Below are positions 54,381 to 54,811 of a stretch of DNA of 64,000 bases, piece after piece; position 1 is the first letter of the stretch; the number at the start of each line of letters is the position of its first letter. This DNA comes from Escherichia coli (GTDB taxonomy: Bacteria > Pseudomonadota > Gammaproteobacteria > Enterobacterales > Enterobacteriaceae): assembly GCF_024502345.1 (NCBI RefSeq), contig NZ_JALDNN010000001.1. One strand, 5' to 3'. The notes under the pieces are model-generated. The model did not search any database. It was not told the origin of the DNA and was given only the letters and a program-made list of their open reading frames with translations. Made by a program: the position numbers and the translations under genes.

Positions 54381-54590
54381 TTAGTTAGAGTTAATTAGCT
54401 TATCAATCTCTGTAAGAGGTAAAGTTGTCACCTCTGCAACGTCTTCCCGAGACATCCCTTTACTTAGAAAACGCTGGGCGAATTCCTGTCTTACCTTCTG
54501 GAGTTCCTCTTGATATCCCTTCTGAAATCCCTTCTCTTCAAACCACTGCGCCAACGTCTGCCTGGTTTCTCTCCGTGTCTTTATTTCCAT
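54381..54590 (-). CDS. free-standing RpnS-like small protein (69 aa), paralogous to the C-terminal domain of RpnC
   Basis: ATG at 54590..54588 preceded by AGGGA; residues 12-69 align with the last 50 aa of the adjacent rpnC ORF (TLAQWFEE…KGMSREDVAE…LPLxEIDKLIN); nucleotide direct repeat at 270-bp offset. Confidence 0.5.
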   Translation of the reverse strand: MEIKTRRETRQTLAQWFEEKGFQKGYQEELQKVRQEFAQRFLSKGMSREDVAEVTTLPLTEIDKLINSN

Positions 54591-54658
54591 AGGTTCCCTT
54601 AATTATCTGGTCAGTTAACAATAACAATTATCTGGCTATAACTGATGATGCAGACAAC

Positions 54659-54811
54659 TTAGTTAATCAGCTTATCAATCTCGGCAAGGGGTAAATTTGC
54701 CATCTCTGCAACGTCTTCCCGAGACATTCCTTTATTCAGAAGACGCAGGACGAATTCTTGCCTTTCCTCCTGTCTTCCCCTCTCTTCAAACCACTGCGCC
54801 AGCGTCATCAT
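54659..54811 (-). CDS. putative intragenic RpnS-like small protein (in-frame internal start within rpnC)
   Basis: In-frame ATGATG at 54811..54806 immediately preceded by GGGAGGGGAG (strong SD-like) inside the rpnC reading frame; would encode the 50-aa C-terminal domain MMTLAQWFEE…EIDKLIN. Confidence 0.4.
   Translation of the reverse strand: MMTLAQWFEERGRQEERQEFVLRLLNKGMSREDVAEMANLPLAEIDKLIN

Follow-up and report, generated by a model that had tools for sequence, protein, structure and literature searches.

rpnCSs, a free-standing copy of the rpnC C-terminal domain gene between panC and rpnC in Escherichia coli, and its difference in helix-1 length from the adjacent RpnC

The region described here lies within a 64,000-nucleotide stretch of an Escherichia coli genome (contig NZ_JALDNN010000001.1), referred to below as the window, and is flanked by panC (53434..54285) and panD (55805..56185), both on the plus strand. 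Between them, on the minus strand, rpnC (54659..55531) encodes the 290-aa RpnC-L, a PD-(D/E)XK nuclease of the Rpn family that scores 268.8 bits against NCBIfam TIGR01784 (cutoff 52.1), and the 290-aa gene is labelled rpnC by RefSeq in strain CP53. The 3' end of this gene is predicted from homology with K-12 rpnC to contain an internal gene, rpnCS (54659..54811, minus strand), encoding residues M241-N290, which begin MMTLAQWFEE, with GGGAGGGGAG upstream. The next ORF on the same strand (54381..54590) encodes a free-standing RpnS-type protein of 69 aa, MEIKTRRETRQTLAQWFEE...KLINSN, and begins with an ATG that is separated from the rpnC stop by an AT-rich spacer of 68 bp (54591..54658). The distance from panC to rpnC is 373 bp. 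The initial annotation of this DNA had reported the 69-codon ORF and its position 68 bp past the rpnC stop, and its coordinates and quoted translation are exact.

The small ORF had also been described as resembling the C-terminus of RpnC, and BLASTP bears this out: residues 4-67 exhibit 63% identity to RpnC residues 235-290 with one 8-residue gap (E=1e-21). At the DNA level, a direct-repeat search identified one copy inside the small ORF (54389..54558) and a second at the rpnC 3' end (54661..54806) that is 24 nt shorter. The copies align in two blocks, the first of 112 nt with 85% identity at an offset of 272 (54389-54500 and 54661-54772), and the second of 51 nt with 80% identity at an offset of 248 (54508-54558 and 54756-54806). 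The two offsets differ by 24 nt, which corresponds to eight codons or two four-amino-acid repeats. This repeat far exceeds what is expected by chance, and its existence had been noted correctly; its starts are at 54391 and 54663 rather than 54392 and 54662 and its offset is 272 rather than 270, errors of one or two bases that are trivial. The small ORF arose when roughly 270 bp at the 3' end of rpnC were duplicated in tandem.

Rpn nucleases represent a type of toxin-antitoxin phage defence that was recognised recently, and their antitoxin is the tail of the toxin itself, produced separately. Zhong et al. (2023, PNAS 120:e2307382120; PMC10400941) identified Rpn proteins as toxin-antitoxin systems in which the full-length nuclease, RpnL, is blocked by RpnS, the C-terminal domain, a separate product of an internal promoter and start. 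The internal start and the small protein of K-12 rpnC were shown by experiment in that study. RpnS may also be encoded by a separate gene, as with ypaA downstream of rpnE, which is rpnESs and was detected by SPA tagging (PMC10400941). A gene named rpnCSs is reported downstream of rpnC in certain strains of E. coli (Fig. 2I and text, PMC10400941); its product clusters with RpnCS, indicating an origin from RpnC, and the gene varies in four-amino-acid repeats and is lost through deletion or fusion. Rpn genes are also found on plasmids and are horizontally mobile (PMC10400941).

The small ORF of the window matches the published rpnCSs in position, strand, homology to RpnC-S, patchy presence in E. 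coli, four-amino-acid repeat variation and loss by fusion. It can therefore be assigned with high confidence to rpnCSs, a second and free-standing copy of the gene for the RpnC C-terminal (RpnS) domain. The initial annotation had interpreted it as an RpnS-like gene that stands on its own, originates from the 3' end of rpnC and is missing in K-12. This observation is right and not new, since PMC10400941 names rpnCSs and describes its origin and its loss by fusion. The gene in the window is real, intact and conserved, and it was correctly read. The published report of rpnCSs is a genomic observation only (Fig. 2I and the SI phylogeny, PMC10400941), given without a frequency, a comparison of repeat number with the neighbouring gene, or a test of expression or activity, and a literature search for later work found nothing more on the gene.

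Against TIGR01784, the small protein aligns with profile positions 213-273 of 273, the last 61 of the model, at 33.9 bits, which is under the whole-protein cutoff. A Pfam-A scan of the small protein identified no significant domain, and even at E<=10 there was no match to DUF4351 (PF14261), the name under which separate RpnS genes are annotated in certain species. The Pfam-A family PF27070 (HTH_Rpn_C) has weak precomputed matches on many close homologues and is not listed for the window protein. The AF2 model, built with 29 sequences, has helices at residues 13-19, 25-43, 48-55 and 59-66 and a moderate pLDDT of 70.5. Foldseek returned nothing significant for this model, with RpnA-S (7TH0) at rank 6 (E=8.9, TMt 0.60). 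A PDB sequence search with the small ORF and the full RpnC did not reach 7TH0 and gave weak HTH-like or chance matches. PADLOC provided a weak match of the small ORF to RmrA (E=5e-4), taken as generic HTH similarity, and no match for RpnC. Membership of the small ORF among RpnSs proteins rests on sequence homology and gene context rather than on fold. By homology, the protein is expected to fold as a helical bundle of the RpnS type and to pair by means of a long first helix bearing four-amino-acid repeats. These repeats begin 8-20 residues past the initiating Met in published RpnS proteins (PMC10400941), and in the small protein they start at K20, inside that range.

The small ORF has translation signals of its own, an ATG at the 54590 end and an SD-like AAGGGA at 54595-54600 (minus strand), 4 nt ahead of it, and both had been recognised earlier, as had a direct repeat in the spacer. 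This repeat, AATTATCTGG, is present at 54601-54610 and 54626-54635, and the two copies mark a 25-bp tandem duplication within the spacer. In two other loci (L014 and L015), AATTATCTGG occurs once, the spacer measures 43 bp, and the small ORF is more diverged and starts MDITARRE. A simple promoter scan found no sigma-70 consensus promoter on the minus strand of the spacer; read by eye, the GATAAT hexamers there are without a well-spaced -35, and the second is too near the SD. A terminator scan found none between rpnC and rpnCSs. With these two results, co-transcription with rpnC or rpnCS is at least as likely as the independent transcription proposed earlier. A read-through transcript from the rpnC promoter or the internal rpnCS promoter is probable because no terminator separates the two genes, and the most economical reading of these signals is that rpnCSs would be carried on this transcript and translated from its own SD and ATG.

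A regulatory hairpin or terminator in the spacer was considered and rejected, as the RNA of the spacer and start region is predicted to be less structured than shuffled controls. No Rfam family was matched in the region. A sub-threshold fluoride-riboswitch hit at the panC end, on the plus strand and with 14 bits where the gathering score is 34, was judged to be chance. A GC-rich hairpin between the panC stop and the end of rpnCSs (54290..54320), found by the repeat and terminator scans, is terminator-like for panC on the plus strand and is the sole candidate stop for the minus-strand transcript. It is kept in every locus read. A short palindrome (54337-54357, gacgtcatcgccatgacgt on the minus strand) is also located downstream of the small ORF, and the segment holding it is missing or different in K-12 and several other loci.

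Comparison with other E. coli genomes shows that the gene is polymorphic among strains. The junction, searched with a query comprising the spacer and the ORF start (54561-54662), was matched in 1555 of 5426 complete E. coli genomes (about 29%), always on the chromosome and with at least 95% identity in 1553 of the 1555. Beyond PMC10400941, the present analysis contributes this frequency, the presence of the junction in E. marmotae and, as given below, the intact reading frames, the conservation of the spacer and 5' end, the likeness of the K-12 rpnC 3' end to a free-standing copy, and the helix-length comparison with the neighbouring gene. Up to three junction copies occur per complete genome, three being found in one genome. 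At least 25 other loci share the arrangement of rpnC followed by a co-oriented small ORF, and E. marmotae encodes the small gene in the same panD-rpnC-small-panC order with the same 68-bp spacer. Among the 138 homologues retrieved by a protein search, the majority are free-standing proteins of 55-77 aa encoded in E. coli, E. marmotae and other Escherichia, with one variant indexed in 2637 blocks of the assembly collection. These free-standing proteins have the N-terminus MEIKTRRETRQTLAQWFEE in common, and variants of 57 to 77 aa change in length by in-frame units of the KGFQ/KGYK/RQEV type. The RefSeq names for the small ORF are inconsistent; near-identical ORFs in other genomes (L003-L008) are annotated as CDS under 'hypothetical protein', 'transposase' or 'RpnC/YadD family protein'. 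The CP53 locus (L002, NZ_CP033096.1 3777490-3777669), which is 100% identical to the window over the 435-nt query, is annotated by PGAP as a pseudogene fragment 'missing N-terminus'. K-12 ypaA likewise carries a RefSeq pseudogene mark although its protein has been detected (PMC10400941).

The small ORF could be a functionless by-product of unequal recombination in a repeat-rich region, selectively neutral and of consequence, if any, as DNA. The locus is dynamic, since 29% of genomes have the gene and in the remainder it is fused or missing, and both the PGAP call in CP53 and the result of the promoter scan fit such a reading. Against it, every locus read, that of E. marmotae among them, retains the ATG, the SD-like sequence and the N-terminus, and the ORF is open throughout at 59-75 aa; among protein variants the range of 55-77 aa is consistent with steps of four amino acids, and every length variant is in frame. 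Pooled pN/pS (Nei-Gojobori) amounts to 0.27 over 20 codons at the N-terminus and 0.46 over 27 codons at the C-terminus, values just moderately below 1 that come from a small, non-independent sample of seven distinct sequences. This pattern is consistent with coding constraint combined with the high variability reported earlier for RpnS. Of the 68 spacer positions, 0-3 (0-4%) differ between E. coli loci and 6 (9%) differ in E. marmotae, whereas neighbouring synonymous divergence reaches a pS of 0.28-0.35 in panC and 0.19-0.35 in the N-terminal 230 codons of rpnC. The spacer and the 5' end of the small ORF are thus several-fold more conserved than synonymous sites nearby, and the low spacer divergence argues for either constraint on this stretch or its recent spread through recombination. 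The analogous RpnESs is made in K-12 (PMC10400941). A decaying remnant or pseudogene was rejected on the shared ATG, the intact ORF everywhere read, the in-frame variants and the pN/pS values, and the broader by-product explanation is considered quite unlikely. The gene has been retained intact in about 29% of E. coli genomes, and E. marmotae has kept it as well. In three assemblies (L020, L024 and L028), the gene caller splits or truncates the rpnC upstream of an intact small ORF; a sequencing error is likely in L024 because panC is split there too.

The initial annotation had suggested that the small protein could act as a supernumerary antitoxin, possibly cross-neutralising Rpn paralogs elsewhere. 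As a spare cognate antitoxin, RpnCSs would neutralise the adjacent RpnC-L and raise the antitoxin dose. Such a role would agree with the 63% identity to the RpnC C-terminal domain, with the same-strand arrangement without an intervening terminator, which makes co-expression with rpnC likely, and with the general ability of RpnS proteins to block RpnL (PMC10400941). The four-amino-acid repeats in helix 1 of RpnS are variable among strains, and for RpnC, RpnC-S no longer neutralises RpnC-L once either of the two has gained a single repeat, whereas matching restores neutralisation (PMC10400941); this rule comes from one engineered repeat in K-12 RpnC, and natural diverged pairs may behave otherwise. 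The helix-1 segment, measured between WFEE and KGM(S/L/P)RED for the two copies at every tandem locus, has 16 residues in the RpnC of the window (RGRQEERQEFVLRLLN) and 24 in the small protein (KGFQKGYQEELQKVRQEFAQRFLS). The RpnC and small-ORF segments are unequal in 15 of 15 distinct tandem pairs, with differences of 4 to 32 residues, and by this sequence proxy the equal repeat number expected of a functional RpnS antitoxin and its adjacent RpnC was found in none of them. The repeat types also differ in most pairs, being RQEV-like versus KGFQ/KGYK-like, and in the spare-antitoxin comparison KGFQ/KGYQ stands against RQEE/RQEV. Since segment lengths vary widely, inequality is expected by chance, and the 15 of 15 result is not proof of selection against matching.

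Given the unequal lengths and the published repeat-matching rule, the small protein would not be expected to neutralise the RpnC beside it. The mismatch weakens the spare cognate antitoxin interpretation, which now appears unlikely. Because helix length differs in every locus examined, rpnCSs is probably not the cognate antitoxin of its neighbour and may represent an RpnS module of different specificity. A related alternative is that it serves as an orphan antitoxin against foreign or distant Rpn alleles with a matching helix length. The 24-residue segment of the small protein has the length of K-12-type RpnC, and Rpn genes move horizontally and occur on plasmids (PMC10400941); no partner was identified within the 64-kb window and the locus, and this alternative is regarded as very improbable.

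K-12 MG1655 encodes one rpnC of 300 aa located 73 bp from panC, and no small ORF. The initial annotation had stated that the panC-rpnC spacing in K-12 is about 270 bp shorter and that the extra copy appears to be missing there, and this is borne out, with 73 bp in K-12 versus 373 bp in the window, a difference of 300 bp. In pairwise alignment, the stretch of the window that is missing from K-12 starts midway through the rpnC tail and ends midway through the small ORF. The K-12 rpnC 3' end with its flank exhibits 97.1% identity over 238 nt to the free-standing small ORF and flank of another tandem locus (L013), and just 88.6% to that locus's own rpnC end. This pattern fits the published route of rpnCSs loss by fusion, and the K-12 reference rpnC allele looks like a fusion to a free-standing tail copy. 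Four RpnC fragments of the full-length RpnC type (P0096, P0099, P0102 and P0110) have tails of KGFQKGFQKGYKEGL...LINSN, which elsewhere are typical of free-standing copies.

One metagenome contig of 814 nt (L012, ENA ERZ27229452 k115_66508, 1-814) contains two tandem small ORFs upstream of panC, with the same 68-bp spacer ahead of each. The first encodes a hybrid of 59 aa in which the small-ORF N-terminus is joined to an RpnC tail of the window type, and the 69-aa ORF follows as the second. This array looks like what would be expected as the reciprocal outcome of an unequal crossover of the kind that makes K-12-type fusions.

The panC side of rpnC is unusually polymorphic. Across panB-panC (52786-54285), nucleotide divergence from other E. 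coli strains is 5-11%, with a panC pS of 0.28-0.32, and the panC pS of 0.35 against E. marmotae is barely above these values. The panD side (55786-56185) has a divergence of just 0-3%. The polymorphism of the panC side may stem from a hotspot of recombination, from linkage to the yad fimbrial operon or from old alleles.

Several features of rpnCSs can be compared with known systems. Like ypaA/rpnESs, it is a free-standing second RpnS copy directly downstream of its parent rpn gene, although rpnESs is an independent duplication from rpnE and has a 12-bp spacer instead of 68 bp. By sequence homology it has the same domain as intragenic RpnS (RpnA-S of 7TH0, and RpnC-S), in which a long repeat-bearing first helix would be followed by an HTH-like bundle. 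Unlike these, it is its own gene rather than the product of an internal start, and it has an extra conserved N-terminal leader, MEIKTRRETRQ. Its helix length is free to differ from that of the toxin, whereas the overlapping arrangement of RpnS forces equality. By analogy only, silent-cassette systems also hold a downstream partial copy that recombines and replaces a variable end, as the K-12 fusion and the hybrid array may illustrate. In contrast to such cassettes, the sequences examined here give no sign of programmed or frequent switching; the recombinants appear to be rare and at the population level, and rpnCSs, equipped with a start codon of its own, is probably expressed.

The overall account favoured here, with somewhat better than even confidence, is that rpnCSs is an expressed RpnS module of different specificity that also acts as a partner for tail-swapping recombination. 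The functional part of this account is held with much lower confidence than the identity of the gene. In an unequal crossover, the body of rpnC would be fused to the downstream copy, so that the specificity of toxin and antitoxin is replaced in one step, as appears to have happened in K-12, and the reciprocal crossover would generate arrays. A stronger form of the account, which is speculative and rather doubtful, is that the mismatch itself is the reason for keeping the downstream copy. The copy would then be both an expressed RpnS module of alternative specificity and a recombination cassette, from which a single unequal crossover with the rpnC 3' end could swap the oligomerisation and specificity helix of both partners. 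If that were true, K-12-type alleles would be one outcome of the exchange and hybrid arrays the reciprocal one, and the locus would possess a built-in means of changing specificity under phage pressure. If the mismatch between rpnCSs and its neighbour is functional, it would show a gene-within-a-gene system escaping the need for toxin and antitoxin to change jointly. Such an escape would be a modest extension of the known biology of Rpn proteins rather than a new kind of system.
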